64,000 bases of DNA from Candidatus Eiseniibacteriota bacterium (GTDB taxonomy: Bacteria > Eisenbacteria > RBG-16-71-46), in assembly GCA_016223045.1 (NCBI GenBank), contig JACRPT010000145.1, positions 12,040 through 76,039 of the forward strand, given 5' to 3'. Of this stretch, positions 2,311 to 45,985 are shown piece by piece. The notes under the pieces are model-generated. The model had not been told where the DNA came from and ran no database searches. It saw nothing but the letters and a program-made list of their open reading frames with translations. The translations under genes were made by a program, and so were the position numbers. Every line of letters begins with the position of its first letter. Within the stretch, counting starts at the first letter, position 1.

Positions 2311-3234
2311 ATGCGCCTCCGCTGCGCTCTCACGACGCTCGTCGCCACCACGCTGGCCGTGACCGCGACCGCCCGCGCCGGGCAGGTGCGGGTCTCGGTC
2401 GTCAACTTCGCGTTCACGCCACGCACGGTGAACTGCAACCTCGGCGACCACGTGGTGTGGGTGTGGCGCGCCAGCAGCCACACCGTGACCAGCGGAGACT
2501 CGTCGGGCCCCACACCCGACGGCCGCTTCAACAGCGGCCTGCTGGCCACCGGCAGCTCCTTCACCTGGAAGAGCGACGCGAGCGGACTCGCCACGTACTA
2601 CTGCGAGCCCCACGCGCCCGGCATGGCGGGGCGGGTCATCGTCGGCGCGGGGATCGCGGTCTCGGACTTCCGCATCACCGAGGTCCTGTTCAACGACGCG
2701 GGCGGGCTCGACCTGGTCGAGATCGCGAACCTGGGGAACGCGGCGGGCGACCTCGGACGCTACCGCATCGTGGTCGGCGCGACCGCGGTCGCCATCCCGC
2801 GCGACACGCTGAGCGTGGGGACGGGTGCTCGCGTGGTCGTCCACTGCAACGCCAGCGGCACCAGCACGCAGACCGACATCTTCCTGCCGACCCTGCCCGC
2901 GCTGCCCGAGCCCGGCTCGGTCGCGCTCTACGCGCCCGACACCGCGCCCGGCCACACCGCGCTCTCCGACGCCACCCAGATCCTCGACTACGTCGAGTGG
3001 GGCGCCGGCGGACAGGCGAACGAGGCCACCGCGGCGACGGCCGCGATCTGGGTGGCGGCGCAGTCCATCAACAACGTGGCCGCGGGGCACTCGATCGAGC
3101 TGTGCGCCGCCGCGCCGCGGAACGCGAGCGCGTGGGCCGAGATCGCCTCGCCCAACTTCGGCTCGAACGGCAACTGCACCACGCCGGCGCGGACCATGAC
3201 CTGGGGGCGGATCAAGACGCTGTACCGGGATTGA
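2311..3234 (+). CDS. Secreted cupredoxin (type-1 blue copper) domain fused to a lamin-tail-domain (LTD)-like domain.
   Basis: Signal peptide MRLRCALTTLVATTLAVTATARA. The copper-ligand motif YYCEPHAPGMAGRV carries the Cys-x2-His-x4-Met ligands. Downstream, FRITEVLFNDAGGLDLVEIANLGNAAGDLGRYRI is typical of LTD domains. Confidence 0.7.
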   Translation: MRLRCALTTLVATTLAVTATARAGQVRVSVVNFAFTPRTVNCNLGDHVVWVWRASSHTVTSGDSSGPTPDGRFNSGLLATGSSFTWKSDASGLATYYCEPHAPGMAGRVIVGAGIAVSDFRITEVLFNDAGGLDLVEIANLGNAAGDLGRYRIVVGATAVAIPRDTLSVGTGARVVVHCNASGTSTQTDIFLPTLPALPEPGSVALYAPDTAPGHTALSDATQILDYVEWGAGGQANEATAATAAIWVAAQSINNVAAGHSIELCAAAPRNASAWAEIASPNFGSNGNCTTPARTMTWGRIKTLYRD

Positions 3235-5732: not shown

Positions 5733-7763
5733 CTACCGAATCACGACCGCCCGCGCGGCTGCGCTCTCTCTTCCCTGCGTGAGCCGCAGCCAGTACACAC
5801 CCGGCTCCACCCGCGCGCCCTGCGACAGCGCGAACACGTGATGGCCCGGGCCGAGCGCGCCCACCTCGCGCGCGAGCACCCGGCGACCCGTGGCGTCGAA
5901 CAGCTCGAGCGCCGCCCGCTCCGCTCGCGCCAGCGTGAACCCGACCTTGAGATCGCTCCCCGAGGACGGATTCGGCCGCAGCCCGGCGAGCGCGAACCGG
6001 TACCCCGCCGGCACCTCGATCCAGGTCTCGGTGGAGAAGCTCGCCGACCCTCCGCTCCCCAGTACCAGCCGGTAGCCGTAGCGCGTCCCCGCCGCGACCG
6101 TGCGGTCTTCGAAGCGCAGATAGCCTTCGCCGTCGCGCAGCACTGTGCCCGCCCGCTCCCACTCGGACTGCATCGTGCGGCGATAGACCGTGGCCTCGTC
6201 CTGGTTCGAGGCGGCGGCGTACCAGGTGAGCCGCACCGCCTCCGGCTCGGCCTCCGCGCTCACCAGCGCCAGCGCCACCGCCACCGGACCGTCCACCACG
6301 TAGCGCTGCGCGTAGGCGCTCCCCTTCCCATTCCGGACCTCGCTCCACACCACGATCGCCCCGCCCTGGCCGTCGGTGCAGATCCGCGGGTGCTGCTGGT
6401 TCGGATACACCACGTCCGCCACCGGCAATCCCTCCGCCGGCCAGCCCGGCGCCACCTGCCCGCCCGCCGTCAGGTGCTGCACGTACACCTTGATACTGTT
6501 GTAGGCGCTGAAGGCCACGTACACCCCGCCCTGACCGTCGGGGGCGATGCGCGGGTCGTAGAGGTAGTCGTAGAGCGTGCTCACCGGCGTGCCGTTCACC
6601 GGCCAGCCCGGCGCCGGAGTGCCGTCGGCCTGTACCCGCTGCAGGTAGAGTCCCGAGCCGCGGCTGTCCTCCCACGCCACCAGCACCCCGCCCTGGCCGT
6701 CCGCGACCAGGTCCATCGGCTGCTGGGTGCCGTTCACGACTGCGACCGGCAGCCCGTCCGCGGGCCAGCCCGCGGGGAAGCCGCCATCGGGGCGAATGTG
6801 GGCCAGGTAGATGTCGTCGCCGTAGGGCTGGTCGGGTGGCACGTTGCGGAAGTCCGACCAGGCGGCAAAGGCACCGCCGGCGCCGTCCGAACACGCCACC
6901 GGATAGGTCTGCGTGTTTGCCGCCGTGCACACCGGCAGGCCGGCGGCCGGCCAGCCTGGCGCGACCGCTCCATCTCGAGTCCGGCGCAGCGCGTAGATGT
7001 CGGCGCGCGTCTGCGAGAGGTTGCGGCCGTCCACCCAGGTGACCATCACGCCGCCCGAATCATCCGCCACCGCCAGCGGGATTGACTTGTAGCCGGGGAA
7101 CTCGCAGAACACCCGGCCCGGCGCAGGCCAGCCGGCGGCAAACTGGCCGTCGCTGGTGATCCGCGCCGCCCGCACGTCGGGCGTGCTCCCGGAGTACCTC
7201 TCATAGACCACATAGGCACCGCCCGCGCCGTCGGCGCAGATGCGCGCTTCTCGCTCGTCATTGATGCTCCCGGCCACGATCAATCCGTCCGACGGCCAGC
7301 CCGGGGCGATCAACCCGTCGGACCGAACATGCTGAAGGAGGACGTCGATCCCGGTGGGTGGGAGGGTGCTGTCAATAACCAGGAAGCCCCCTCCCTGTCC
7401 GTCAGGAGCAAGCCCGAGCAGGAAGTCATCGAACCCCCGTCCGGCGGCGCGGAGGCCCGAGGCTGGCCAGCCCGGGGCGATGGCCCCCGAGCCGGTGACC
7501 CGCTGGGCGTAGATGTCCACATCATTCAGATTCCTGAAGTCCCGCCACGCAACGAATGCTCCGCCCTGGCTGTCCGGAATCACCTGCGACTCACCCCCGC
7601 AGCCGGGACATGTGTCGCTTACGGACACGCCGTTTGGGATCCAGTTGGCCTCCGCCGCCGCCGGGAGCGACAGAGGAAGCGAGGCTCCGAGCAGCAGCAC
7701 AGCCGCCACGGGCGCGCGCCCCCTGTTCACGCCGGGACGACTTTGTTCGGCCCTATCGAACAT
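5733..7763 (-). CDS. Secreted beta-propeller-like tandem-repeat protein with a C-terminal FlgD-Ig/T9SS-type sorting domain.
   Basis: At least seven ~50-aa repeats follow the pattern DGxGG(a)(Y/V)VAWxDxR....DIYaQR(V)..DG..APGWPxxGxPV. The C-terminus LRPNPSSGSDLKVGFTL...ELFDATGRRV...GPGHHVF...GVYWLRLTQG matches FlgD-Ig/Por-secretion C-terminal domains. The start was moved to the ATG at 7763 (signal peptide, purine-rich RBS) from the track's TTG at 7826. Confidence 0.65.
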   Translation of the reverse strand: MFDRAEQSRPGVNRGRAPVAAVLLLGASLPLSLPAAAEANWIPNGVSVSDTCPGCGGESQVIPDSQGGAFVAWRDFRNLNDVDIYAQRVTGSGAIAPGWPASGLRAAGRGFDDFLLGLAPDGQGGGFLVIDSTLPPTGIDVLLQHVRSDGLIAPGWPSDGLIVAGSINDEREARICADGAGGAYVVYERYSGSTPDVRAARITSDGQFAAGWPAPGRVFCEFPGYKSIPLAVADDSGGVMVTWVDGRNLSQTRADIYALRRTRDGAVAPGWPAAGLPVCTAANTQTYPVACSDGAGGAFAAWSDFRNVPPDQPYGDDIYLAHIRPDGGFPAGWPADGLPVAVVNGTQQPMDLVADGQGGVLVAWEDSRGSGLYLQRVQADGTPAPGWPVNGTPVSTLYDYLYDPRIAPDGQGGVYVAFSAYNSIKVYVQHLTAGGQVAPGWPAEGLPVADVVYPNQQHPRICTDGQGGAIVVWSEVRNGKGSAYAQRYVVDGPVAVALALVSAEAEPEAVRLTWYAAASNQDEATVYRRTMQSEWERAGTVLRDGEGYLRFEDRTVAAGTRYGYRLVLGSGGSASFSTETWIEVPAGYRFALAGLRPNPSSGSDLKVGFTLARAERAALELFDATGRRVLAREVGALGPGHHVFALSQGARVEPGVYWLRLTQGRESAAARAVVIR

Positions 7764-7910
7764 CGCCCACCCCCGATTCAGATTCGTCTTGATATTGGAA
7801 CGACCGGATGCTACCAAGCCCCGCAAGGTTGTCCGCGTCGTTTGCCTTCTACACGGGCGCCAGGGCCGCCGGGCCGCACGGGACGTATCTCGCCACCACG
7901 GAGGTCCACC

Positions 7911-10900
7911 ATGCGCTCAGCGATACCCGGCACGGGGGAACCGGCCGCCGCTCTCGGCCACACGGTCCAGCGCTTCCTGCTGCTCGTCTGCCTTCTGACG
8001 CTGCTTCCCCCGTCGGCGATTCCATCTCCGCCGCAGCCCCACCATCCGGGCAAGTGGACCGGCACCGTCAGCTGGGGCAATGCCGCGGTCCACCTGGTGC
8101 TGCTGCCGGGCGATTCCACCCACAGCAGCGTGCTGTGGTGGCGCGGCGACGAGCCGGCCGGTCGGTTCGGCGGTCTGTGGCGCTGGGAACCGCCGAACGA
8201 CGCGTCGGTCAATGCCGGCAACTACCCCACGTCGAGCTTCACCGACCGTCCGCTGCCGGAGCCGCCCTACGACATCTTCTGCGCCGGCCACGCCCATCTC
8301 CGCGACGGGCGGATCCTGATCGCGGGCGGGCACGAGACCGGCCGGTCCGAGACCGGCTCCGACTCGTCGGTGATCTTCAACCCGAAGAGCCTCGTTTCCC
8401 CCTGGCAGGTGCAGCCGAAGCTGGCCTACCGGCGCTGGTATCCGACCACCACGGTGCTGGCCAGCGGCGAGGTGCTGACCCTCTCCGGCACCCAGTACCA
8501 GCACCTGGACGTGTTCGGCGGCTTCGATGCAGCCGGGCAGACCAGCGACTCGCTGCGCCGGTTCGGGATCGCGAACCACACCGACTGGGACGCGGCGGTG
8601 AAGCCGGACGAGGACCCGTACGCGCCGTCGCCGCCACGCCGCCCGGACGCGCTCGAGGGGCTGACCATGGTGGATGGCTACGGGACCGGGGCCTACGAGC
8701 TGGTCTACGGCGGGCGCCGGGCCACCGGCGGAGGCCAGTACGCGTATTCCGACCTCCTCTGGTTCCTCTACAAGAACCCCAACGAGGGCGCGCCGGACTA
8801 CCAGTACGGGTGGCGGAAGTGGATGAACCAGAGCGCTGACAGACCCGATCCGTGCGCCTTCCACGCGGCGGTGAAGCTGGACAACGGGGACCTGGTGGTG
8901 ATCGGCGGGCTGAAGGAGTTTCAGGGAGTCGTCACCGTCAGCAGCGAAGTCTGGTACGGGAAGCTGGACCCCTCGGACAACGTTTGGAAGTGGAACCACG
9001 TCTACTCGACGACGGCCGACTCGCTCGGCCCACGCTACGCGCACGAGGCGGTCTATGACAGCGCGCTGAAGCGCATCTTCGTCTTCGGCGGCGCGAGCAC
9101 CCAGGGCAGCGATCCCGCCGATGCCGACGTGTGGTCCCTGAGCACCGACCCGCCGCTGAGCGGGAAGACCACCCGCTGGATCCGCTGCGCGGCCGTGAAT
9201 GGCGAGCGCCCGAATCCCCGCGTGCAGCACAGCCTCGCCATGGACGCCCGGCGCCGGAAGAACGCGACCGAGGGCGAGCGCCTCCGCGCCCTGCTCTACG
9301 GCGGCCGCAGGAGCTGGTCAGCCGCGCCCTTCAGCGACACTCTGTGGGTGGCCTGGTTCAAGGACAGCGCCACCGTGGAGTGGCAGCGCCAGACCACGCC
9401 CGCGGCCGGGCCGGGGAAGCGCGCCCGCCACGCCGGCGTGATGCATCCCTACAGCGATCGCTTCTTCATCGCCGGCGGCGACCTGTCGGGGCTCGCGCTC
9501 CCCGACAGCGCCGTGTGGGTGGGCTCGACCTACTGCACCACCTGCGACAACGCCCCGGTGAGCTGGTCGCAGGCGCCCTCGATGGTGCGCGGGCGCGCCG
9601 GCCACCGCGCGGGCGCTGTGGTCTCCGACGTGATCGCCCGCGTGCCCGAGGTGTTCGATCCCGGCAGCGGCACCACCGGGAGCTGGACCACCCACGCGCA
9701 GTCGCCGCGCCTCCAGGACTGGTACCCGTTCATGTTCCAGCTCCCGGCCGCGGTCGCGGGAGGCAGCAGGAAGGTGTTCTTCGCCGGCCCCGAGGACTCC
9801 TCGTTCGTGCTCGACCTGGGCGCGAGCCCTGCCGCGTGGAGCCCGTTCCCGGCCAATGCCAACGCCACCTTCGGCAAGCGGGGCGGCTCGGGCGTGATGT
9901 ACCGGATCGGCAAGGTGATGAAGTCGGGCTCGCGCGACACCGAGCTGCCCCCGCAGTTCGCCACCGACACCACGATGTCCGTGGACCTCGGCGAGTCCGG
10001 TCCGAGCTGGAAGCTCTCGGTCAACGACATGGGGTTCCGGCGCGTGAACCACGACCTGGTGCTGCTGCCGACCGGCGAGGTGCTCACCACCGGCGGCACG
10101 CGCTGGGTGGACAACACCGCGAACCAGGACCCCAACCACCAGCCCGAGCTGTGGAACCCCGATTACACCGACCCCGGCGCCCCGGACCGGCGCGGCTACT
10201 GGTACGGCACCAGTGGCCCGATCGTGCTCGACTCGACCAGCGCCACCCGCGGCTACCACAACAACGCGTTGCTCATGCCCGACGGCCGGGTGCTGTGCGC
10301 CAGCGGCTCCTTCGACGGCGGCCTGTGGTCCTACACGGCCGACCTCTACAGCCCGCCCTACCTGTTCAACAGCGACGGCACCACCCGCACGCGCTCGGCG
10401 ATCCTGGGGACCAGGGGCCGGCTCGCCCACGGGGACACCTTCTCGGTGGTGGTGGACAGCACCAACGTGAGCTTCGTGCTGCTGCGCGCCGGCTCCAGCA
10501 CCCACGGCTTCGATCAGGACCAGCGCTACCTGCCGCTCGCCGACTACTATGCCAGCCCGCCGCTCACCACCCCGCCGCGCCGGACGCTGCGCATCCCCGC
10601 GGCCGCCGACTCGCTGCCGCCCGGGCCTTACCTGCTGTTCGCGGTCAAGCCCTGGGGCACGCCTTCCATCGCGCGCTGGCTGATGATCGGCAGCCCGCCG
10701 GCGGATGACGACTGGGGGGACCGCACCCGGCCCGGGCTGGTGGGGAACCTGAGCAAGGTCTTCCTCTGCCCGGACTACCAGATCCGCTGGACCGCCCCGG
10801 CCGACGACAGCACCTGGCGGGTGACCGGCCGGGCGGTGAGCTACGACCTGCGCTACGCCAACAGCCCCATCAACACCTGGACCGACTTCCAGAACGCGAC

Positions 10901-12317
10901 GCCGGTGAGCGACGTGCCTGCGCCGGCCGACCAGGGCACGTTCCAGAGCGTGAACGTCTCGCTCGACCCCGGGCTCCACTACTACTTCCGGCTGGTGAGC
11001 TACGACGACCACGTGGCGCCGGCGAACCGCTCGCTGCTCAGCAACGACCTCAGCTTCATCGCTCTGGGCTGCGACGGCGCACTGTACGGCGGCAGCGGCA
11101 GCGGCGGCCGCGGGGCCTCCTTGCAATCCGCCGGCCGGCTGGGGCCGAGCGCGCTGCAGCAGCAGGGCAGCGGCTTCGCCGAGAACTCGCTGCTCCCCGG
11201 CCAGCCCGCAGAGACGACCGCGACCGACCTGCTGCGCCTGGAGGCCGCCCCGCAGCTCGCCGACGGCCGCTACCAGGTCCACCTGCGCCGCGGCGTCACG
11301 GGCTCCTCGCGACTCGACCGGGTGCGCCTCGTCGCGCTCGATCGCTCCGGCGCGGGCACCGCCTTTGTGCTCCCGGGCAGGGCCCTGCTGGGAGCGCCGC
11401 TGGCGGCGGCCAGCGTCACGCGAGCCGACCGCACCGACCTCACCGCTCAGGCCACCGGCGGCGATGTCGGCGCGTACCAGGCCGCGGCCGGCGAGACGCT
11501 GCTCGTCAGCCTGCCGCTGGCGGAAGGTGAGTCAGCGGCCGACCTGGCTGCCCGCCCGCTGCTGCTGCGCGCCGTGGACGGCGCCCCGCAGAGCGACCCG
11601 GCCTCGATCGGCATCCTGATCCAGGTGCCGGACGGTGCCGGCGGCTGGCGCACGGTTGCCCATCGGGCCGCGCGCCAGCGCTTCGCCGAGCTGCCGGTGG
11701 ACTCGATCGGCAGCGCCACGGTGCGCCTGGTGTTCCTGAGCGATCAGGCGGTGAGCTTCGTGGGGCGGATCGGACCCGCGAGCGGCACGCTCGCCACGCA
11801 GGCGATGTCCCCCGCGACGGCGCAGCACTCGCGACTCGGAGCGCTCGATCCCGCCGCACTCGTGGCGGGCGGGGCCGGCGTCACGCTGGCCGCCCAGGAC
11901 ACGCTCGTGCTCGGGTTCGACGCCGGCACCCCCGCCGCCGGCGACACCCGCGACTGGTACCTGGAGGTCACCGGCGAGCACCTGGCGGGGCCATCGCAGA
12001 GTCAGCAGCGCCTCGCGCCGCGAGCGGAAGGCCTGCCCCGGACCTTCGCCCTCGGCCAGAACCGGCCCAACCCGTTCACCGGGACGACCACCATCCACTT
12101 CGACCTGCCCGTGGCCGCGCGGGTGCGCCTCGAGGTGTTCGACCTGCAGGGCCGCCGCGTGCGCCGGCTCCTGGACGCGCAGCTCGAAGCCGGGCGCCAT
12201 CAGGCCGACTGGGACCGCCGCGGCGCCGAGGGGACTCTCCTCCCCGCGGGCGTCTACCTCTGCCGCATGCAGGCCGGCACCTTCCACGACGAGAGGACCA
12301 TGGTCGTCTTCCCGTAG
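7911..12317 (+). CDS. Giant (1469 aa) secreted galactose-oxidase/glyoxal-oxidase-like radical copper oxidase: expanded Kelch propeller + DUF1929 + FN3-like + FlgD-Ig/T9SS-type C-terminal domain.
   Basis: DIFCAGHAHLRDGRILIAGGH corresponds to the Cys228 thioether region of galactose oxidase. RGYHNNALLMPDGRVLCASGS corresponds to the Tyr495-His496 copper ligands. RAGSSTHGFDQDQRYLPL corresponds to the DUF1929 His581 region. The C-terminus NRPNPFTGTTTIHFDL...VFDLQGRRV...AGVYLCRMQAG is a FlgD-Ig sorting domain. The start was moved to the ATG at 7911 (GGAGG RBS), because the 5' part of the track ORF overlaps the divergent gene. Confidence 0.75.
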   Translation: MRSAIPGTGEPAAALGHTVQRFLLLVCLLTLLPPSAIPSPPQPHHPGKWTGTVSWGNAAVHLVLLPGDSTHSSVLWWRGDEPAGRFGGLWRWEPPNDASVNAGNYPTSSFTDRPLPEPPYDIFCAGHAHLRDGRILIAGGHETGRSETGSDSSVIFNPKSLVSPWQVQPKLAYRRWYPTTTVLASGEVLTLSGTQYQHLDVFGGFDAAGQTSDSLRRFGIANHTDWDAAVKPDEDPYAPSPPRRPDALEGLTMVDGYGTGAYELVYGGRRATGGGQYAYSDLLWFLYKNPNEGAPDYQYGWRKWMNQSADRPDPCAFHAAVKLDNGDLVVIGGLKEFQGVVTVSSEVWYGKLDPSDNVWKWNHVYSTTADSLGPRYAHEAVYDSALKRIFVFGGASTQGSDPADADVWSLSTDPPLSGKTTRWIRCAAVNGERPNPRVQHSLAMDARRRKNATEGERLRALLYGGRRSWSAAPFSDTLWVAWFKDSATVEWQRQTTPAAGPGKRARHAGVMHPYSDRFFIAGGDLSGLALPDSAVWVGSTYCTTCDNAPVSWSQAPSMVRGRAGHRAGAVVSDVIARVPEVFDPGSGTTGSWTTHAQSPRLQDWYPFMFQLPAAVAGGSRKVFFAGPEDSSFVLDLGASPAAWSPFPANANATFGKRGGSGVMYRIGKVMKSGSRDTELPPQFATDTTMSVDLGESGPSWKLSVNDMGFRRVNHDLVLLPTGEVLTTGGTRWVDNTANQDPNHQPELWNPDYTDPGAPDRRGYWYGTSGPIVLDSTSATRGYHNNALLMPDGRVLCASGSFDGGLWSYTADLYSPPYLFNSDGTTRTRSAILGTRGRLAHGDTFSVVVDSTNVSFVLLRAGSSTHGFDQDQRYLPLADYYASPPLTTPPRRTLRIPAAADSLPPGPYLLFAVKPWGTPSIARWLMIGSPPADDDWGDRTRPGLVGNLSKVFLCPDYQIRWTAPADDSTWRVTGRAVSYDLRYANSPINTWTDFQNATPVSDVPAPADQGTFQSVNVSLDPGLHYYFRLVSYDDHVAPANRSLLSNDLSFIALGCDGALYGGSGSGGRGASLQSAGRLGPSALQQQGSGFAENSLLPGQPAETTATDLLRLEAAPQLADGRYQVHLRRGVTGSSRLDRVRLVALDRSGAGTAFVLPGRALLGAPLAAASVTRADRTDLTAQATGGDVGAYQAAAGETLLVSLPLAEGESAADLAARPLLLRAVDGAPQSDPASIGILIQVPDGAGGWRTVAHRAARQRFAELPVDSIGSATVRLVFLSDQAVSFVGRIGPASGTLATQAMSPATAQHSRLGALDPAALVAGGAGVTLAAQDTLVLGFDAGTPAAGDTRDWYLEVTGEHLAGPSQSQQRLAPRAEGLPRTFALGQNRPNPFTGTTTIHFDLPVAARVRLEVFDLQGRRVRRLLDAQLEAGRHQADWDRRGAEGTLLPAGVYLCRMQAGTFHDERTMVVFP

Positions 12318-12459: not shown

Positions 12460-15054
12460 TCACCTGACCAGCGCCGCCTTCGCGCTCACCGCGCGGCCGC
12501 CCTGCGTGAGGCGCACGACGTACATGCCGGCCGGCATCACCGCCGCGCCGCTCAGGCGCACCAGGTGGTTGCCGGCGCCGAGCGTGCCGACTTCGCGGCG
12601 GAACACGCGCCGCCCGCCCACGTCCATCACCTCGAGCCACGCGGGTGAGGCGCCGGGAAGCGAGAACGCGACCAGCGCCTCGCCGGGCGCCGGGTTCGGA
12701 CGGAAGCCCCGGAGTGCGAGCGCGAGCGTGGCCGGTACGTCCACCCACACCTCGCCCGCCGGCGTCTCGCCCGAGCCGCCGGACACGCCGAGCCGGTAGC
12801 CGTAGCGGCGGCCGGCCACGACGTCGCGGTCCACGAACCGCAGCATGCCGCTGCCGTCCACGCCGGCGCGGCCGAGCACGGCCCAGTCACCGCCCTCCTC
12901 GCGCCGATAGACGTTCGCCTCGCCGCCGGGCACGCTCACGTACCACGCCAGCTCGACGCGATCCGGCTCGGCGCGCGCGCTGACCAGCGAGGCGAGCGCG
13001 GCGGTGGTGCGGTCGAGCTGCAGCACCCACGAGTCGTCCATGCGCCAGCAGCAACCGTCGTTGATCACCAGCCGGTAGCGCTCGAGGTCGAAGCCGCCCG
13101 CCAGGTCGAAGCGACCGGGCGGGACCGTCGTGCCGACGGCGAGCAGCTTCCAGACCGGGGCGCCGTTGAGCTCGAGCGCGTAGGTGTCGCTGGTGCCGCT
13201 GTAGCCTCCGGTATCGCCGCCGTAGACCAGCATGCGGTGGCCGAGCGAGTCGTACGCCGCGACCGCGCCGCGGCGCGGCGTGGGAAGAGTGCCGGTGGGC
13301 GCGAGCTGGGTCCACGGCGGCGTGCCCGACAGCGCCAGCTCCCACAGCTCGTCCAGCGGGCCCGAGTTGTCGCCGCCGAAGATCAGCATGCGGTCGTTGA
13401 TCGGGTCGTAGATCGCCGCGCTCTTCGCGCGCGGGCCCGGCGGCGTGCCGAGCGGAACGATCTCGCTCCAGGTCGGGCTGCCGGAGAGGTCGAGCGCCCA
13501 CCCGTCGTTGCCCGGCCCGCCCCAGCCGCCGAAGACCAGCATCCGGTCGCGCGTCGCGTCGTAGACCATGCTGCATTCCATGCGCGAGGGCGGCACCGGC
13601 CCGGCGGGCGCGAGCTGGCTCCACACCGGCGCGCCTGCGAGCGCGAGCGCCCATACCCCGCTCGGCGAGGACACGCTGTCGCTGCCCCCGTAGAGCAGCA
13701 TGCGGGCGCGCACCGGGTCGTAGAGCAGCCGATGGCCCCAGCGAATCCCAGGCAGGCTGCCGGTGGGCGCCAGATCGCTCCACGTGGGAGAGCCCCCGAG
13801 CGCGAGCGCCCAGGTGTCGCCGAGAACGCTGGCGCCCGTCATGCCGCCGTAGATCACCAGGCGGTTGCGCGGCGGGTCGTAGATCCCCGCGTGCTGGTTG
13901 CGCGGCTCCGGCCGGCGCGTTCCCAGCTCGCTCCAGCGCACCGTGTCGCCGAGCGCGAGCGCCATCACCAGGTCCGGCGGCGCGGTGCCCATGGTGTCCT
14001 GGCCGCCGTAGAGGACCATGCGCTGGCGCGGCGCGTCGAAGATCCCGCTCGCGTCCCCCCGCGTGGCGGGCGGTGTGCCGAGCGGAACCAGCTCGGTCCA
14101 TGCGGGCGCTGCCAGATCGAGCGCCCACACGTCGTTGAGGTTGCCGCCGGTCGCGGGATCGCTGATGCCGGTCGAGATCACCATGCGGTCGTTCGCCCGG
14201 TCGTAGACCGTGACGCCGACGGCGCGCGCGGGCGGCGGCCCGCCGGAAGGCGCGAGCAGGGTCCAGGCCGGGCTCGCGCCCAGCGTCATCTGCCAGACGT
14301 CGCCCAGCATGACGCCGTTGTAGCCGCCGTAGACCACCATGCGGTCGCGCGCGGGGTCCACGATCGTCATCTGCCCGGCGATCGAGTCGGGCGAGACGCC
14401 GGTCGGGAGCAGCTCGGTCCAGGTGGGCGTGACGCCGAGCGTCAGCTCCCAGACGTCGGAGAGCAGGCCGGTGGGCGGCCCGTTGGCGCCCGGCACCTGC
14501 GCGCCGCCGTGGACGATGAGGCGGTTGCGCAGCGAGTCGTAGACCGCCGACTGGTAGACGCGCGCGGCGGGCAGCCCGCCGGCCGGCGCGAGCTGCTGCC
14601 AGGCGAGCGGCAGCACGCCCAGCGGCAGGACCCAGACGTCGTTGTAGGAGGTGGTGGAGTCGGACGCGCCGGCGAAGACGACCAGGCGGTCGAGCGCCGG
14701 GTCGTAGATCGTCGAGGGGCCCCAGCGGGCGGCCGGCCTGGTCCCGGTGACCGCCAGCAGCGACCACGCCGGCGACCCGGCCAGCCCGAACTCCCACACG
14801 TCGTTGGTGGGCGACATGCTCGTGCCGCCGAAGACCAGCATGCGCTGGCGCACCGGGTCGAAGATCGCGCCGTGCTGGTTCAGGGCCGGCGGCGGCAGCT
14901 GGTACCAGTAGCCGTCGTCCGAGGCGCTGGCCCGGGACGCGGCGGGCGACCTGCCGGAGACCCACGCGAGAGAACTCGAGACGGAGACGAGAAGGAAGAG
15001 GAGACCGGACAGGACCGCGCCGATCCTCGGCGCTGCGTTGCGGAGGCATCGCAT
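12460..15054 (-). CDS. Secreted multi-blade Kelch-repeat beta-propeller protein with a FlgD-Ig/T9SS-type C-terminal domain.
   Basis: About 12 repeats of the form GG.....NDVW.L.L.G.P.W..L.P.G..P..R......YD....R.(L/M)..FGG. The C-terminus reads LRGFRPNPAPGEALVAFSL...EVMDVGGRRV...GAGNHLV...GMYVVRLTQGG. Start set at the ATG at 15054 (MRCLRNAAP..., GGGAGGG RBS). Confidence 0.7.
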   Translation of the reverse strand: MRCLRNAAPRIGAVLSGLLFLLVSVSSSLAWVSGRSPAASRASASDDGYWYQLPPPALNQHGAIFDPVRQRMLVFGGTSMSPTNDVWEFGLAGSPAWSLLAVTGTRPAARWGPSTIYDPALDRLVVFAGASDSTTSYNDVWVLPLGVLPLAWQQLAPAGGLPAARVYQSAVYDSLRNRLIVHGGAQVPGANGPPTGLLSDVWELTLGVTPTWTELLPTGVSPDSIAGQMTIVDPARDRMVVYGGYNGVMLGDVWQMTLGASPAWTLLAPSGGPPPARAVGVTVYDRANDRMVISTGISDPATGGNLNDVWALDLAAPAWTELVPLGTPPATRGDASGIFDAPRQRMVLYGGQDTMGTAPPDLVMALALGDTVRWSELGTRRPEPRNQHAGIYDPPRNRLVIYGGMTGASVLGDTWALALGGSPTWSDLAPTGSLPGIRWGHRLLYDPVRARMLLYGGSDSVSSPSGVWALALAGAPVWSQLAPAGPVPPSRMECSMVYDATRDRMLVFGGWGGPGNDGWALDLSGSPTWSEIVPLGTPPGPRAKSAAIYDPINDRMLIFGGDNSGPLDELWELALSGTPPWTQLAPTGTLPTPRRGAVAAYDSLGHRMLVYGGDTGGYSGTSDTYALELNGAPVWKLLAVGTTVPPGRFDLAGGFDLERYRLVINDGCCWRMDDSWVLQLDRTTAALASLVSARAEPDRVELAWYVSVPGGEANVYRREEGGDWAVLGRAGVDGSGMLRFVDRDVVAGRRYGYRLGVSGGSGETPAGEVWVDVPATLALALRGFRPNPAPGEALVAFSLPGASPAWLEVMDVGGRRVFRREVGTLGAGNHLVRLSGAAVMPAGMYVVRLTQGGRAVSAKAALVR

Positions 15055-15354
15055 GAGGAAACCCTCCCTAGGTTTCCGAGGGAAGCGCACTGCGCCGCGT
15101 CCCTCGAGTCTGGCGTGCAACTGTGCTGCGGATACCGTGGGGTTGAAGCGCGGTCAAGGTAGACCGTGCGGCAGCGGCGGTCAACGAGACAGCCCGGGCC
15201 CGCCGCGCTGTTCACTGCGGTAGGCCCGCCACAGCGGTCCCCCGCACATGCGCTGGTACGAAGGATCGGCCCGGGCCATTCGCCGGCCGCGCCGCGCGCC
15301 GCGGCAGACCGCGATCGGCCCGCGTTCCCAGCAGCGGCCGGCGCACCGTCCCGA

Positions 15355-24521: not shown

Positions 24522-25490
24522 CTACTCTCCGAACACCGCCAGGTGCGCCAGCGCGTCGGCGGCCCACAGGCCGGCGCCGGCGAAGCCGCGGCCCGTGAGC
24601 GCGAGCTGCGCGCCGAGTCCGCGCGACGGGCGCGCCTGCACGAGCGCGGTCGCGATCCTCGCGATCCAGTCGGTCCCCGCCCGCTCCGGCGCGCCCGCAC
24701 GCGCTCCAGGCTGGAGCGCGAGCGCCTCGACCGCCAGCAGGTAGGACGGCATCACGACCGGGCGCAGCGCGGCCCAGGTGTCCGGGTGACCGAACACCTC
24801 GAGGCCCAGCAATCGGCCGTGCGCGAGCGCCAGGATCCCGACTTCGCCCGGCACCTGGTCGAAGGCGCGGGCGCGGTCCTCCGCCTCGCGCCGGTGCGCG
24901 GCCGCGCCGGCCATGTAGTCCCCGGTCGCCGAGCGGACCCCATGCGCCGAGAGAGCGCGCGCGACGTCCGCCCACAGGCGGCCCTGGTCCACGTGGCCTT
25001 TCGCGGCGGCCTCGGCGACCGTGTGCCGTCGAAGGGCGGGCTCGACCGGAAGATCGCCGACGGCGAACCTGGACGAGGCTCCGCCCCAGCGCCCCTGCTG
25101 CACGCAGCCGACCTTCACCGGCACCGTCTGCACCGGTCCGATGAGCGTGGTCTCCACGACCACCCGGTTCTGCTTCGCGCCGACCAGGCTCGAGCCCTCC
25201 GGCACCAGCACCGGGGCCGGTCCCCGGTTGCACACGACGACCTCGTTGACGACCCCGCCGCCCTGCTCGACCACTTCCACATGGCCGGCCTTGACTGCCT
25301 GGTGGAGGAGCAGGTACGAAGGTCCGGGTGCGCCCTCGAGCCGGAGCGGGAAGATCTCCAGTGGGCCGGCGACCCGGGAAGCCTCCGGCCTGAGGCGGCC
25401 GAGCCAGAAGGCGACCCGGGCTTCGCTCCAGGGGTGTTCGGCCCCAGGGCTGCCGGCCCATGGTTGGAAAGCAGCGGATATCGCGCTCAC
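24522..25490 (-). CDS. Conserved hypothetical protein (323 aa); first gene of the cassette divergent to the XRE/S24 repressor.
   Basis: RBS AAAGGAGG 5 nt before a GTG start at 25490. Conserved-looking motif ...LVPEGSSLVGAKQNRVVVETTLIGPVQTVPVKVGCVQQGRW... . I half-recall a family with a GxKQNR...VPVxCVExGRW signature, but the identity could not be established from sequence alone. Confidence 0.5.
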   Translation of the reverse strand: MSAISAAFQPWAGSPGAEHPWSEARVAFWLGRLRPEASRVAGPLEIFPLRLEGAPGPSYLLLHQAVKAGHVEVVEQGGGVVNEVVVCNRGPAPVLVPEGSSLVGAKQNRVVVETTLIGPVQTVPVKVGCVQQGRWGGASSRFAVGDLPVEPALRRHTVAEAAAKGHVDQGRLWADVARALSAHGVRSATGDYMAGAAAHRREAEDRARAFDQVPGEVGILALAHGRLLGLEVFGHPDTWAALRPVVMPSYLLAVEALALQPGARAGAPERAGTDWIARIATALVQARPSRGLGAQLALTGRGFAGAGLWAADALAHLAVFGE

Positions 25491-25493
25491 GGG

Positions 25494-25668
25494 AGCCTCC
25501 TTTGATGACCAGTGCTGGTCGCATTTGTCGCGCAGCGCCACCTTGCCATGGATTTCGGCTCCTAGCCTGCATCACCGGGCATATATACCGCTTGTGGTCG
25601 CAATTGGTCAAGGGATATATTTAGAGCGCCATGAGCTATGAATTGGTCGCCAGACTGGCGAGGCGCTG
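25494..25668. promoter_or_regulatory. Divergent promoter/operator region between the hypothetical cassette and the XRE/S24 repressor.
   Basis: Locally AT-enriched. TATATA-type -10-like elements at about 25580 and 25614. Three copies of TGGTCGC(A/C) at 25516, 25595 and 25644. A CAATTG palindrome and a 13-bp palindrome CGCCAGACTGGCG at 25648-25660 abut the repressor start. Confidence 0.4.
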
Positions 25669-26697
25669 GTGCTTCCCATGAACCCTCCGCGGCGCGGCCG
25701 CCCTTCCGAAGAGACGAGCCACCCGGTGGGCGGCTACCTGCGCCGCCGCCGCGAGTCGCTCGGCCTCACCACCCGGGACCTGGCCGTCAGGGCCGGGCTC
25801 AACCCCAGTTCGGCGTCCTACATCTCCCAGCTCGAGTCGGGGGCGAAGGTGCCGAGCCGGGATCTGGCGCTGCGGCTGGCCGGGGTCCTCGGGGATGACC
25901 CGCGGATCTACCTCGCGTGGGCCGACCTGGGGAAGCGCGCGGACCCGGTTGCCCACGTCCATGCGCGGCACCTGCTATCTCGACTGCTGGGCGACGCGCG
26001 GCTCGAGGTGCGCCTGACCTCGCCTGAGGACGTGATGCTCGGGGAGGTCCCCGGGCGCCCCACGGAGCGGGCGGGCCAGCGCCGGGCACTGGCCTCGTTC
26101 TTCAAGGCGCGGAAGGCCATGGCGTCCGCGGCGGCGGGGCGGGTCGCCCCCTCGTACGCCGACGCCACGCCCCTGTCCTCCGCGCTGCGAGTCCCTCCGC
26201 GAGCGAAGGAGGACCACCTCCAGGCTGACCCGGTCCGCGCGCTGCGGTCCGTCGCCGAGGGCGCACTGGCGACGCTGGCGTGGGTCCCCATCCCCGAGAT
26301 CAGGGGGGGCGCGGACCCGGGGGAGGACCCGCGGGCGCCCCAGAACGTGATCACCGTACATCGGGTCAGGGCGGAGGCGCTCGAAGGCATGGAGCCGCTC
26401 CGGCACCCGTTCGCCTGCTGGGTCTCGGACGAGGACGCGCGGCACCTCGGCCGGGCGCTCATGCCCCGCGACATCGCGATCCTCACCCGGCGCGTCCTGC
26501 CACTCGACCCGCACCAGCCCTACGCCGTGCGCGTCGAGGGCCGGGTCCTGCTGCGCTACGTGAAATGGAACGGGCGCCACCTGCTCCTGCTCGGTGAGCG
26601 CGACGAGGACTTCGTCACCGTCGAGGCGCCCGACGAACCCGCCCTCAGCCGCGCGCTGGCGGGCAAGGTGGTGGCGACCATCCCCGCCCGGCGCTAG
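25669..26697 (+). CDS. LexA/CI-like repressor: N-terminal XRE-family HTH + C-terminal S24 (LexA-type) peptidase domain.
   Basis: HTH: LGLTTRDLAVRAGLNPSSASYISQLESGAKVPSRDLALRLAGVL. C-terminal ...AVRVEGRVLLRYVKWNGRHLLLLGERDEDFVTVEAPDE...AGKVVATI fits the S24 beta-fold with a candidate Ser/Lys dyad (WVSDED / RYVKW). Confidence 0.7.
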   Translation: MLPMNPPRRGRPSEETSHPVGGYLRRRRESLGLTTRDLAVRAGLNPSSASYISQLESGAKVPSRDLALRLAGVLGDDPRIYLAWADLGKRADPVAHVHARHLLSRLLGDARLEVRLTSPEDVMLGEVPGRPTERAGQRRALASFFKARKAMASAAAGRVAPSYADATPLSSALRVPPRAKEDHLQADPVRALRSVAEGALATLAWVPIPEIRGGADPGEDPRAPQNVITVHRVRAEALEGMEPLRHPFACWVSDEDARHLGRALMPRDIAILTRRVLPLDPHQPYAVRVEGRVLLRYVKWNGRHLLLLGERDEDFVTVEAPDEPALSRALAGKVVATIPARR

Positions 26698-27904: not shown

Positions 27905-28756
<852 letters not shown>

Positions 28757-28777
28757 GGTCGGTGACGTTCCTTTCTC

Positions 28778-29659
28778 TCAGCGCCCCGGGATGCGGCGGA
28801 CGGTCAGCCGCAGCAGCCCGGACACCAGCGCCACCAGCAGCAGGAGCACGAGCGCCCCGGCCCAGGCCTGGCGGTTCCACTCGTCGTAGGGAGCGCGCGC
28901 GTAGTCGTAGATGAACACGGGGAGCGACGCGATCGGCTGGTCGAGGCGGAGCGACCAGAAGCGGTTCCCGAGCGCGGTGAAGAGCAGCGGCGCGGTCTCG
29001 CCGGCGGCGCGCGCGAGCGCGAGCAGGCTCGCGGTCACGATGCCGGCGGAGGCCGCGGGCAGCACGATCTGCTGGGTGACGCGCCAGCGCGGCGCGCCGA
29101 GCGCGAGGCCAGCTTCGCGGTAGGAGCGCGGCACCAGCCGCACCACCTCCTCGGTGGAGCGGACGATGGTGGGCAGCATCAGCAGGCCCAGCGCGATCCC
29201 GCCCGCCAGCGCCGAGAAGCGTCCCATCGGGACCACGACGAGCCCGTAGGTGGCGACGCCGATCACGATCGAGGGCACCCCGCTCAGCACGTCGGCGGTG
29301 GAGCGCACCAGCGCGCCCACGCGGCCATCGCCGTGCTCGGCGAGGTAGAGTCCGGCGCCCACTCCGACCGGCACCGCGACCAGGGCGCCGAGGCCCACCA
29401 GGATCAACGTGCCCACGATGGCGTTGGCCATCCCCCCGCCCGGCTCCCCCACCGGCTTCGGCAGGTGGAGGAAGAACCCGAGGTCCAGCGCCGGCAGGCC
29501 CTGCGCCAGCAGGTGCGCGACGATGAGCCCCAACGGCAGCACCACGGCGGCCGCGGCGAGCGCGCACGCCGCCAGCAGCCCCGCGTTCCACGCCCGGCGC
29601 GGCAGCGACGGGCCGCGAACCGGCAACGCGCCGATCCGCTCAGGCCGCGCCCGCGACAT
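28778..29659 (-). CDS. pstA: Phosphate ABC transporter permease PstA.
   Basis: Polytopic; position and similarity within the pstSCAB block. Confidence 0.85.
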   Translation of the reverse strand: MSRARPERIGALPVRGPSLPRRAWNAGLLAACALAAAAVVLPLGLIVAHLLAQGLPALDLGFFLHLPKPVGEPGGGMANAIVGTLILVGLGALVAVPVGVGAGLYLAEHGDGRVGALVRSTADVLSGVPSIVIGVATYGLVVVPMGRFSALAGGIALGLLMLPTIVRSTEEVVRLVPRSYREAGLALGAPRWRVTQQIVLPAASAGIVTASLLALARAAGETAPLLFTALGNRFWSLRLDQPIASLPVFIYDYARAPYDEWNRQAWAGALVLLLLVALVSGLLRLTVRRIPGR

Positions 29660-30626
29660 CGCGCCTCCCCCCGGTGGTCGCGACCACCAGCAGCCGTGCG
29701 AGCGCGTTCACCACGACCGTGAGCGCGAACAGCACCAGCGCGATCTCGACCAGCGCCGAGAGGTAGAGCTTGCCGGTGGCCTCGGCGAACTCGTTGGCGA
29801 TCACGCTCGCCATGGTGGCGCCGGGCGCGAGCAGCGAGGCCGAGATGCGGTTCGTGTTCCCGATCACCATGGTCACCGCCATGGTCTCGCCGAGCGCGCG
29901 TCCCAGCGCCAGGATCGCCGCGCCGAGGATGCCCGGCCGCGCGGCGTCCACCGCCACCGCGATGGCCTCCGCGCGGGTGGAGCCCAGCGCCAGCGCCGCC
30001 TCGCGCAGCGACCGCGGCGTGGCGAGCAGGATCTCGCGCGAGATCGAGACCACCGTGGGCACCACCATGATGGCGAGCACGATCCCGGCGTTGAGCATCC
30101 CGATGCCGAAGGGGAACCCCTGGAACAGCGGCAGGAATCCGACGTGCGCGGTGAGCCACGGCTCCGCGGCGCTCCGCAGCCATGGCGCCAGCACGAACAG
30201 GCCCCAGATGCCGTACACGATGCTGGGGATCGAGGCCAGCAGATCGATCACGAACGAGACGACCGCGCCCAGGCGCGGCGGCGCGAGCTCGGCGAGGAAC
30301 ACCGCGCTCCCGATGCCGAACGGCACCGCCAGCGCCATCGCGATCGCCGAGGACACGAGCGTGCCGTAGAGGTAGGGCAGCGCCCCGAACCGCTCGGCCA
30401 CCGGGTCCCAGTCGGTCGAGACCAGGAAGCCCCAGCCGAAGACCCGCAGGGACGGCCCCGCACCGCGGGCGGTCTCGTACAGGACCAGGGCCGCGACCAC
30501 CGGCACCAGCAGCGCGAGCGCGCCGAGCAGGCGGCGGTAGGCCTCGTCGGCCCACACCGCACGCCGCCGCCCGGGTGCCGCCGCCACGCTCCGCGGGAGC
30601 GGTGCTCCGGCCGATCGCGCCTCCAC
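29640..30626 (-). CDS. pstC: Phosphate ABC transporter permease PstC.
   Basis: Polytopic; EAA-loop-type segment. Overlaps pstA by 20 nt. Confidence 0.85.
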   Translation of the reverse strand: MEARSAGAPLPRSVAAAPGRRRAVWADEAYRRLLGALALLVPVVAALVLYETARGAGPSLRVFGWGFLVSTDWDPVAERFGALPYLYGTLVSSAIAMALAVPFGIGSAVFLAELAPPRLGAVVSFVIDLLASIPSIVYGIWGLFVLAPWLRSAAEPWLTAHVGFLPLFQGFPFGIGMLNAGIVLAIMVVPTVVSISREILLATPRSLREAALALGSTRAEAIAVAVDAARPGILGAAILALGRALGETMAVTMVIGNTNRISASLLAPGATMASVIANEFAEATGKLYLSALVEIALVLFALTVVVNALARLLVVATTGGRRDVAGAA

Positions 30627-30636
30627 GGCCGCCTTC

Positions 30637-31701
30637 CTACCGCCCCGCGATCACGGGGCGGCCGGCTGCGGTCAGGGTCCTCAGGCTCGCCTCGTTCACC
30701 TTCACCACCGCCTCCGGCAGCCGTGCGTAGTCGAGGGCCTCGGCCACCGATTGCCCCTCATGGATGGCCCAGGCGATGAAGTCGGCGAGCGCCTTCGCCT
30801 TCGCCGGGTCCTTCTGGTCCTGGTAGACGAGCAGGAAGGTGAGGCCCGCGATCGGCCAGGCGTCCGGCCCCGCCGCGTTCACGATCGGCGTGCGCACGTC
30901 CTTCGCGAGCGCCGCGGCCGAGCCCGCGGCGGCAGCCGTCGTGGACGCCAGGGACGGCGCCACGAACCTGCCGGCGCGGTTGCGCACCAGCGCCACCGGC
31001 AGCCGGTTCTGCTTCGCGTAGGCCAGCTCGACGTAGCCGATGGCGCCCGGCGTCTGGCGCACCAGCCCGGCCACGCCCTCGTTACCCTTGCCGCCCACGC
31101 CGGAGGGCCAGCTCACCGAGGTGTTCGCGCCCACCAGATCCTTCCACTCGGCGCTGATCGCCGAGAGATAGGAGGTGAAGATGTTCGTCGTGCCGCTGCC
31201 GTCCGCGCGATGCACCGCCAGGATCGGCGCCGCGGGCAGCTCCACGCCCGGGTTCGCGGCCGCGACGCGCCGGTCGTTCCATGTCGTGATCTTGCCCAGA
31301 TAGATCGCGGCGATCACTTCGGGGGTGAGCTGAAGCGGCTTGCTCGTGCCGGGCAGGTGGTACGCGAGCACCACCGCGCCGGCAACGGTCGGGAAGTGCA
31401 CGACCCTGCGCGGCATCTCCCTGAGGCGGTCGTTCGAGAGCGCGGCGTCGCTGGCGCCGAAGTCCACCGTGCCCGCCCTGACCTGCTGGATGCCGGCGCC
31501 GCTGCCGATGGACTGGTAGTTGATCCGCACACCGGTCTTCTCCCCGTACATGTCGAACCACTTCGAGTAGATCGGATACGGGAAGGTGGCGCCGGCGCCG
31601 GTCAGGCTCTGCGCCGCGGCGGGGACGGCGGCCCCCGCGGCGAGCGCGGCCGGCAGGAGCGCCGCCGCGAAGCGGCGCGCGAAGGCGTTTCGCATCGTCA
31701 T
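30637..31701 (-). CDS. pstS: Phosphate-binding periplasmic protein PstS.
   Basis: Signal peptide, then SLTGAGATFPYPIYSKWFDMY...INYQSIGSGAGI (PstS phosphate-binding signature). ATG at 31701 with RBS AAAGGAG. Confidence 0.85.
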   Translation of the reverse strand: MTMRNAFARRFAAALLPAALAAGAAVPAAAQSLTGAGATFPYPIYSKWFDMYGEKTGVRINYQSIGSGAGIQQVRAGTVDFGASDAALSNDRLREMPRRVVHFPTVAGAVVLAYHLPGTSKPLQLTPEVIAAIYLGKITTWNDRRVAAANPGVELPAAPILAVHRADGSGTTNIFTSYLSAISAEWKDLVGANTSVSWPSGVGGKGNEGVAGLVRQTPGAIGYVELAYAKQNRLPVALVRNRAGRFVAPSLASTTAAAAGSAAALAKDVRTPIVNAAGPDAWPIAGLTFLLVYQDQKDPAKAKALADFIAWAIHEGQSVAEALDYARLPEAVVKVNEASLRTLTAAGRPVIAGR

Positions 31702-31724
31702 GGTCCTGCTCCTTTCGTACGGAA

Positions 31725-32885: not shown

Positions 32886-33039
32886 GGCGTGTTCGTCCTT
32901 TCGTGCCACCCGCGCGCGAGCGCGGGCGCGTTGGCTGCCGATCGCGGTGGTGAGCGTCACGAAGGCGCGGTGCGGAGCGGGGAGTGTCGGCTCGCCGCGA
33001 TCGGCAGCCGCAGACTGACACCCGGCACGTTGCCACCGC

Positions 33040-33068
33040 GTGACGGCGGTGTTACGGCGCGGTGAAAA
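33040..33068 (-). promoter_or_regulatory. Pho box: three 7-bp direct repeats at exact 11-bp spacing (PhoB-type binding array) upstream of the porin-pst operon.
   Basis: Plus strand reads GTGACGG-CGGT-GTTACGG-CGCG-GTGAAAA. On the transcribed (minus) strand this is TTTTCAC-CGCG-CCGTAAC-ACCG-CCGTCAC, compared with the E. coli CTGTCAT-N4-CTGTCAC consensus. It lies ~155 bp upstream of the porin start. Confidence 0.45.
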
Positions 33069-33234
33069 ACGCCTGGTGGCCGGAGGGCCGTGCCTGCCGT
33101 CCTCCGGGGCGGCGGGCCGGCACGACCCGGGACGATGCGGGGGCCGATCGGTGGAGCCGGAGGCCGTCCACTCGCTTCGCCGCCCCGGACACGATCTTCC
33201 GACCACGACCCGGGCGACGCGGCGGGCGAGCGCG

Positions 33235-40688: not shown

Positions 40689-40799
40689 CAGTAGATGATG
40701 TGGATAACCGTTGCTTGCAGATTCCACACTCCATCGCACCCGCGGGGCGCACGGCCGCGATTGAACGGAAGTTCTCGCAGCCCTGGACCCTGTGGATAA
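40689..40799. promoter_or_regulatory. Two perfect DnaA boxes (TGTGGATAA = TTATCCACA) at 40689-40697 and 40791-40799, upstream of dnaA; oriC/dnaA-promoter region.
   Basis: Exact 9-mers read in a locally low-GC ~500-bp intergenic region. The second box abuts the dnaA start. Confidence 0.55.
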
Positions 40800-40830
40800 G
40801 TTCGCGACCTTTTCAGCAAGGACCGTTGAA

Positions 40831-43731: not shown

Positions 43732-43733
43732 CC

Positions 43734-45984
<2,251 letters not shown>

Positions 45985-45985
<1 letters not shown>

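Follow-up and report, generated by a model that had tools for sequence, protein, structure and literature searches.

A stretch of 64,000 nucleotides from a Candidatus Eiseniibacteriota bacterium (contig JACRPT010000145.1; hereafter "the window", meaning this whole stretch) encodes, at 7911–12317 on the forward strand, a protein of 1468 amino acids (aa) that appears to be a mononuclear copper radical oxidase destined for export and belonging to the galactose oxidase/glyoxal oxidase/GlxA superfamily (AA5-like in CAZy terms). Our explanation, which we consider likely as a whole, is that an ordinary oxidase core carries a complete second propeller of the Kelch type nested at its substrate face, that a stalk and a sorting-type tail follow this catalytic head, and that a surface protein encoded next door serves as its partner. 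Copper would be bound by Tyr177, Tyr782, His783 and His865, with a cross-link between Tyr177 and Cys124 presumably yielding the Tyr-Cys radical cofactor, and, by analogy with the family, the enzyme would oxidize a primary alcohol or aldehyde by two electrons while O2 is reduced to H2O2. Both the chemistry of the family and the precedent of a cap domain in GlxA have been described (PMC11611005, PMC4736821). We regard the oxidase as a conserved variant within a family of well-known enzymes and not as a system of a new kind. The gene, the parts of its catalytic core and the insert lie as follows.

7911–12317, + strand: complete oxidase gene, 1468 codons and a stop codon; G+C at third codon positions (GC3) 0.90–0.98 throughout; product identical to NCBI protein P0001
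8046–8510, + strand: N-terminal part of the catalytic seven-bladed propeller, residues 46–200, placed by phmmer against PDB (query 40–194 = 9g8h 146–279) and by invariance in the family
8280–8282 and 8436–8441, + strand: Cys124 and Trp176-Tyr177, lying inside this N-terminal propeller part together with Gln195/Tyr196 of the Trp290-equivalent loop
8511–9632, + strand: inserted six-bladed Kelch propeller, residues 201–574, with GG doublets at 203, 267, 332, 393, 464 and 522
9633–10352, + strand: C-terminal part of the catalytic propeller, residues 575–814, with Tyr782-His783 at 10254–10259
10353–10688, + strand: galactose-oxidase-like E-set (DUF1929) domain, residues 815–926, with His865 at 10503–10505; PF09118 61.1 bits, cutoff 25

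By its sequence, this protein is a radical copper oxidase of the galactose/glyoxal oxidase type with all ligands present. The hallmark motifs claimed in an earlier, sequence-only reading of the window are indeed there, namely F123-C124-A-G, R-W-Y177-P, Y782-H783 and, within the DUF1929/E-set domain, T864-H865. The galactose oxidase family is defined by the residues Cys228, Tyr272, Tyr495, His496 and His581 (PMC11611005), to which C124, Y177, Y782, H783 and H865 align. All four copper ligands (the equivalents of Tyr272, Tyr495, His496 and His581) thus survive a proper alignment, and the putative thioether cysteine sits in an F-C-A-G context that aligns with "dmFCpG" of galactose oxidases. The seven-bladed Kelch-type propeller and the Ig-like E-set (DUF1929) domain that together characterize radical copper oxidases were both recovered, the latter by a hidden Markov model (HMM) match well above its cutoff. 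The positions given in the sequence-only reading (Cys at about 135, YH at about 880) were off by 10–100 residues; likewise, the distance from Cys124 to Tyr782-His783 is 658 aa and not ~750, while the ~270 aa quoted for comparison is close to the 267 of fungal galactose oxidase. Among all PDB sequences, phmmer ranked the galactose oxidases 9g8h/9g43 as the best matches (E 5e-30), with fungal enzymes at ~1e-20 to 1e-22 and GlxA at 5e-14. In fungal galactose oxidase, Trp290 lies at the copper face and stacks on the Tyr-Cys cofactor; the position aligned with it is Gln195 in the window oxidase, followed by Tyr196 at a mostly aromatic position, and Trp176 directly precedes Tyr177, as in GlxA.

Conservation was counted over 92 full-length relatives (fast-mode MAFFT, first 1020 residues), whose overall identity is only 30–47%. 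His783 and His865 are present in all 92 of these proteins, Tyr177 in 91 and Tyr782 in 85, and Cys124 in each of the 88 relatives that cover its column; position 176 is Trp in 83/92 and aromatic in 91/92. One might suspect a surface protein of the lectin or adhesin type that is catalytically dead and keeps no more than the oxidase fold. A multi-domain surface-protein architecture with stalk and sorting tail would suit such a scaffold, as would the seven of 92 relatives in which the axial-Tyr column of this fast alignment holds another residue, be it through misalignment or real loss. Against it, all five cofactor residues are present in the window oxidase, and family-wide they are 92–100% conserved despite the low overall identity. 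Conservation so far above overall identity points to selection on the copper site, and near-invariant cofactor residues at 30–47% identity therefore favour active enzymes over an artefact or a dead scaffold; we regard the latter as very unlikely.

What sets the protein apart is the insert between the two halves of its catalytic propeller. The phmmer matches to PDB chains are always split, with query residues 40–194 and 616–926 corresponding to adjacent parts of the solved chains. When residues 201–574 were deleted in silico (leaving 34–200 plus 575–935, 528 residues), the remainder gave one collinear alignment to 9g43 147–617 and 1gof 159–635, with a phmmer E of 2e-31 against 9g43/9g8h. The protein has a Kelch match above cutoff (Pfam, 68.7 bits). 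The excised segment shows six invariant GG doublets, in agreement with six blades, and its six Kelch repeats are predicted to close into a propeller: in the structural model, a complete oxidase module of seven blades, E-set domain included, is accompanied by a separate Kelch propeller of six. The sequence-only reading had attributed the extra length to large inserted blades or domains. An inserted domain does account for it; the catalytic propeller, on the other hand, is not expanded, since the deletion construct aligns collinearly and the model contains two separate propellers, the second nested in a loop of the first. The junction coincides with a loop whose sequence in fungal enzymes is GGSW(290)SGG, and the insert begins five residues after the Trp290-aligned position. 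The insert (~201–574) is placed in the loop after the third-blade strand that carries Tyr177, and the second propeller may pack rigidly beside or over the substrate-entry face, where it could shape or gate substrate access or dock a partner. In function it might be analogous to the cap domain of GlxA, albeit with another fold and another insertion point. In the literature searched (subscription journals lay outside the search), we came across no copper radical oxidase that carries a nested Kelch propeller, and none of this architecture has been characterized in that literature, much as the sequence-only reading had supposed.

The long reading frame is a genuine single gene, as supported by the following translation-start signal.

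7900–7904, + strand: Shine-Dalgarno sequence GGAGG, spacer of 6 nt to the ATG at 7911, by direct reading of the sequence

The open reading frame (ORF) is open from 7329 and ends at 12317. GC3 is 0.90–0.98 in all segments of 7911–12314, as compared with 0.67 in the in-frame stretch 7329–7910, and the 1468-aa product is identical over its full length (100%) to one NCBI protein from a metagenome-assembled genome (MAG). The drop of GC3 upstream, the Shine-Dalgarno site and the identity to the NCBI protein led us to conclude that this is one gene, without a frameshift, starting at 7911. The coordinates in the sequence-only reading were accordingly exact, the product being 1468 aa followed by the stop and not 1469 aa. 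In the 582 nt open upstream of the start (7329–7910, + strand), GC3 is non-coding-like; the segment overlaps the 5' end of the divergent gene, and 194 spurious residues would be appended to the oxidase if the longest ORF were naively taken as the gene. Spurious ORFs are numerous in the window, which has a G+C content of ~72%.

Chimeric contigs do occur in MAGs, and the window stems from one, so that the long ORF could be thought an assembly or gene-fusion artefact, whether an oxidase gene fused to a Kelch gene in a chimera or two genes linked by a frameshift. No evidence in favour of this was found. At least 150 clusters, drawn from assemblies independent of one another (JGI, ENA, Logan, NCBI), show the same collinear architecture, GC3 is uniform along the one ORF, including across the two halves that might have been separate genes, and the Kelch segment lies inside the oxidase domain, both flanks of which are needed for a complete seven-bladed fold. 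The artefact is refuted, and we assign it practically no probability. Of the two findings that would have refuted the sequence-only reading, a loss of Tyr or His ligands and separate genes for the two halves, neither was made. The gene is probably monocistronic, flanked by a divergent gene upstream and a convergent one downstream. A scan for sigma-70 promoters and terminators returned nothing above background, and six aligned intergenic regions between oxidase and partner shared only the Shine-Dalgarno sequence and a TTGAC-like -35 box, with no common operator.

The expanded oxidase belongs to a sizeable family. While a word-indexed search had found nine clusters, an exhaustive HMMER search of 1.84 billion representatives gave at least 150 clusters (at 50% identity), all the matches listed being members of the expanded-oxidase family, and the notion of a nearly unique protein was dropped. 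About 110 of the matches listed cover query residues 1–900 in one collinear stretch, and even the weakest listed scores ~190 bits. Among those with a named source, Eisenbacteria MAGs account for nearly all. A genome scan with one genome per GTDB species located the expanded form in MAGs labelled Candidatus Eisenbacteria or Eiseniibacteriota plus one labelled Methylomirabilota, and ordinary galactose-oxidase-like genes in Gemmatimonadales, Acidobacteriota, Actinomycetota, Chloroflexota and other groups. Between the equivalents of Tyr272 and Tyr495, the spacing is bimodal, with 193–225 residues in 50 ordinary proteins, 560–681 in 13 expanded ones and none in between; it is 605 in the window oxidase. 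In a neighbour-joining tree of the catalytic core without the insert, expanded and ordinary proteins separate at a single bipartition, which is consistent with a single insertion event, and the Kelch propeller thus appears, from these sequences, to have been acquired once. Gemmatimonadales loci with 3-kb matches were considered as expanded members and rejected, their Tyr-Tyr spacing being 193 and their extra length N-terminal. Three loci (L009, L010 and L016) form a deeper expanded subclade with a longer insert (Tyr-Tyr 663–681 versus 560–611) and without the partner gene upstream; one of the three is the locus labelled Candidatus Methylomirabilota, which may reflect real spread or mis-binning.

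Outside the catalytic head, the protein comprises a putative export signal and a C-terminal half made of several modules.

7911–8015, + strand: N-terminal export signal or membrane anchor, residues 1–35, read from the sequence as a basic n-region up to R21 followed by FLLLVCLLTLL
10746–11063, + strand: FN3 domain, residues 946–1051, matched by both profile and fold
11064–11165, + strand: Gly/Ser-rich linker, predicted to be disordered, residues 1052–1085 (34 aa); predicted local distance difference test (pLDDT) 23–46, Gly 29%
11166–11984, + strand: all-beta region, probably two beta-sandwich modules, residues 1086–1358 (~270 aa), without a specific match
12063–12314, + strand: C-terminal beta-sandwich tail resembling FlgD-Ig and C-terminal domains (CTD) of the type IX secretion system (T9SS), residues 1385–1468; pLDDT 85–92

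We infer that residues 1–35 act as an export signal or membrane anchor; on reading the sequence, they contain no twin-arginine motif. A model of residues 927–1468 (9 sequences; pLDDT 72, predicted template modelling score (pTM) 0.52) arranges the rest as FN3 domain, disordered linker, ~270 aa of all-beta structure, short linker and an ~80-residue beta-sandwich tail (1385–1466). The FN3-like module of the sequence-only reading is therein borne out, whereas its "~500 aa of Ala/Gly-rich sequence" shrinks to ~330 aa, consisting of the 34-aa Gly/Ser linker and ~270 aa of mostly folded beta-sandwich rather than low-complexity sequence (Ala plus Gly make up 30% of residues 1086–1358 versus 22% of the whole protein). 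FN3 domain, flexible linker and beta-sandwich region would together form a stalk behind the catalytic head. As to the tail, for which a FlgD-Ig/T9SS sorting role had been proposed, the FlgD_ig part holds (PF13860, 30.9 bits against a cutoff of 27), while the T9SS-specific HMMs are sub-threshold. An ~80-aa C-terminal beta-sandwich combined with a basic-then-hydrophobic N-terminal stretch, presumably a Sec signal, does have the shape of a T9SS type A substrate. Besides, the same tail HMM matches nothing in the 64 kb but the C-termini of three clustered ORFs, i.e. the oxidase and its two flanking genes. T9SS sorting of the oxidase is no more than plausible, and the tail would most likely mediate export across, or attachment to, the outer membrane. 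The literature searched holds no experimental T9SS work on Eisenbacteria, and a third word-indexed search, for which a profile was built from the C-terminal region, gave a single FN3 match of no relevance.

Head-to-head with the oxidase gene lies the gene for the presumed partner.

5733–7763, - strand: divergent partner gene, 677 aa; the product has a signal peptide, eight repeats of ~57 aa, a module resembling FN3 and the C-terminal tail also found in the oxidase

Its repeats follow the pattern DGxGGAxVxWxDxR...DIYxQR...APGWPxxG, and a partner profile matched nothing in PDB and Pfam except for the tail; at a guess, the eight repeats fold into an eight-bladed propeller. Orthologues of the partner (33–49% identity) stand head-to-head with the oxidase gene at 12 of 17 informative loci, the window included (the others being L001–L005, L007, L008, L011, L012, L014 and L019); besides the window, the pair occurs on all five homologue contigs from exact lookup and at six more genome loci, one of them truncated by a contig end. 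The oxidase-linked partner is one orthologous branch of a large family of surface proteins; the pairing is real, its meaning conjectural. In the clade of the window gene, the eight-repeat protein probably works with the oxidase at the cell surface. Two loci of a single Eisenbacteria genome (L011 and L019, both from MAG SMAG_U4620, DASXQT01) encode paralogous expanded oxidases, each with its own head-to-head partner, which suggests that the oxidase-partner pair duplicates as a unit.

This arrangement bears on what the insert is for. Six-bladed Kelch domains are classic protein-protein interaction modules, and the best structural matches of the insert are the substrate receptors KLHL12, Keap1 and KLHDC. 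The insert might hence be no lid at all, but a docking platform for the eight-repeat neighbour or another surface protein, with the oxidase as a catalytic subunit and the insert positioned off the active site. The head-to-head partner at 12/17 loci, diverging about as much as the oxidase does, would fit this alternative. However, L009, L010 and L016 keep an even longer insert with no adjoining partner, and the insert leaves from a loop that lines the copper face in galactose oxidase. We consider docking in place of capping possible, if rather unlikely, and retain a propeller nested at the substrate face as the preferred explanation. A more far-reaching version, in which the two propellers clamp or channel the copper site for a polymeric or surface-bound substrate and the eight-repeat protein is an obligatory partner, would amount to an undescribed two-protein oxidative machine of the Eisenbacteria cell surface, its logic resembling that of GlxA-CslA or the fungal oxidase-peroxidase pairs, built of other parts; this we deem doubtful.

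Several points weigh against our explanation as a whole. At the copper site, these are the seven relatives without the axial tyrosine mentioned above and the Pfam profile Glyoxal_oxid_N (PF07250), which scores 20.9 bits, below its gathering score of 37.5, over residues 120–200 only, presumably because the 374-aa insert splits the domain; the low score is no evidence of non-membership. For the insert, the alignments behind the two predicted models are shallow (24 and 9 sequences), and its placement relative to the copper site is a prediction from only the insertion point and a high pTM. With regard to the tail, the T9SS-specific HMMs fall just below threshold (TIGR04183, 22.3 versus 23; PF18962, 17.5 versus 27), and no T9SS machinery gene was detected among the 30 window ORFs scanned against Pfam. 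The partner is absent from 5 of 17 oxidase loci, among them L009, L010 and L016; it belongs to a very large paralogous family (at least 570 matches in metagenomes); and of the 80 best partner-like metagenome loci, just 5 have an oxidase next door. Finally, the oxidase gene shows no consistent linkage to a carbohydrate-binding module, a peroxidase, a copper chaperone or a glycan synthase. Lacking a consistently linked accessory gene, the neighbourhood does not point to the substrate, and a polysaccharide or lignin-derived alcohol, as suggested in the sequence-only reading, is pure speculation.

Further genes near the oxidase deserve mention. The gene at 12460–15120 (- strand) is convergent with it and encodes 886 aa; besides ~12 Kelch repeats, which Pfam scores at 371 bits, its product has a module resembling FN3 and the sorting-type tail seen in the oxidase. 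This gene is not conserved at the homologue loci, and its identity to the Kelch insert of the oxidase is 27%; an origin of the insert as a copy of this neighbour was rejected, the similarity being at the generic Kelch level. About 4.7 kb upstream of the oxidase (2311–3234, + strand) lies a gene for a plastocyanin/azurin-like copper-binding protein with a segment resembling a lamin tail domain, and at L002 (14594–21217) a CusC/CusB/CusA-type efflux system and a cupredoxin directly follow the oxidase homologue. Each was seen once; a copper-supply or copper-tolerance link of the cupredoxin-like gene and the CusCBA cluster is possible.

The remainder of the window holds features that are separate from the oxidase. 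At 40792–49178 (+ strand), dnaA, dnaN, gyrB and gyrA follow each other in a row, and G+C is 0.66–0.67 at 40–46 kb versus ~0.73 elsewhere; this is probably the chromosomal replication-origin region, ~30 kb from the oxidase locus. An ARPP-1 domain protein (24522–25541, - strand; Pfam, 204 bits) forms a divergent pair with a 342-aa HTH_31/XRE-type regulator (25669–26697, + strand). A phosphate-type ABC transporter set (27905–35007, - strand), comprising a PBP_like_2 binding protein, two permeases and an ATPase, adjoins a HAMP-PAS histidine kinase and resembles an ordinary Pst/Pho-type cluster. The 727-aa ORF at 53018–55201 (+ strand; G+C 0.78) has a histone-deacetylase domain in its C-terminal 270 residues only and no match in its N-terminal ~430, and its true start may be located further downstream.

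Copper radical oxidases are valued biocatalysts and act as morphogenesis or infection factors in Streptomyces and fungi, while structural and biochemical knowledge of them derives almost entirely from fungal enzymes plus a single bacterial one, GlxA. The present work suggests that, in an uncultured phylum, bacteria reshaped the substrate face of such an enzyme by nesting a whole second propeller in it, while selection kept the copper site strictly conserved. Should access to this site be controlled by the insert, specificities beyond those of current AA5 enzymes might be found, and this would be the second independent case, after GlxA, of active-site capping through domain insertion. For studies of protein architecture, a propeller within a propeller is an uncommon case in any event. 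The oxidase by itself does not open up a long-standing question, its chemistry being expected to be that of the known family.

Among the known systems, fungal galactose 6-oxidase (Fusarium graminearum; 1GOF/2WQ8; AA5_2) and the alcohol oxidases 5C92 and 6RYV share only 24–30% identity with the window oxidase. Relative to the galactose 6-oxidase, the latter has the 374-aa six-bladed Kelch insert five residues after the Trp290-aligned position, Gln195 in place of that tryptophan with Tyr196 beside it, and Trp176 before the ligand Tyr; it lacks the N-terminal CBM32 and adds the long FN3/beta-sandwich stalk and the sorting tail. The closest sequence match among solved structures, the "galactose oxidase" 9G8H/9G43, for which our literature search retrieved no paper, covers all cofactor positions with chain residues 146–617, yet has ~50 residues (chain 279–330) where the window oxidase has ~420 (query 194–616), and neither stalk nor tail. 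The search likewise yielded no usable survey of bacterial copper radical oxidases and no report of AA5 enzymes in Eisenbacteria. Ordinary bacterial DUF1929/galactose-oxidase-like proteins (L020–L085) have the same core with its RWYP, YHS and TH motifs at 29–35% identity, but no insert (Tyr-Tyr 193–225), and lie on the other side of the core-tree bipartition. The six-bladed Kelch domains of KLHL12 (2VPJ), Keap1 (6FMP) and KLHDC2/3/10 are 14–19% identical to the insert, which differs in being nested in the propeller of an extracellular enzyme, without BTB/BACK or any other ubiquitin-ligase adaptor. Of the T9SS type A sorting domains (TIGR04183/PF18962) and the FlgD Ig-like domain (PF13860), the tail passes the threshold of PF13860 only.

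The most instructive comparison is that with GlxA of Streptomyces lividans (4UNM), a membrane-associated enzyme whose cap domain lies between the cross-linking Cys121 and Tyr289, with Trp288 next to Tyr289 (PMC4736821, PMC11611005). By this parallel, the window oxidase could be a GlxA-like morphogenetic oxidase that acts, in concert with a glycan synthase, on a nascent cell-surface glycan in the manner of the CslA-GlxA pair of Streptomyces. However, the NCBIfam GlxA equivalog (NF052501) scores 90.4 bits against a cutoff of 800, mainly over residues 684–926; Cys124 and Tyr177 are a mere 53 residues apart, the insert following the tyrosine; and neither a GT2 synthase, an endoglucanase or another glycanase nor a cslA/cslZ/dtpA-type gene adjoins the oxidase gene in the window or at L001–L005. 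On account of the low equivalog score, the insert after the Tyr and the missing cslA-type neighbour, the window oxidase is not a GlxA orthologue, and we judge a GlxA-like morphogenetic role to be improbable. The extra domain of GlxA is no propeller and precedes the Tyr, and GlxA is anchored by an N-terminal helix, the window oxidase presumably by its C-terminal tail. What the two enzymes have in common is the tryptophan directly before the ligand tyrosine and, in general terms, the addition of a domain on the copper face, which is predicted for the window oxidase.

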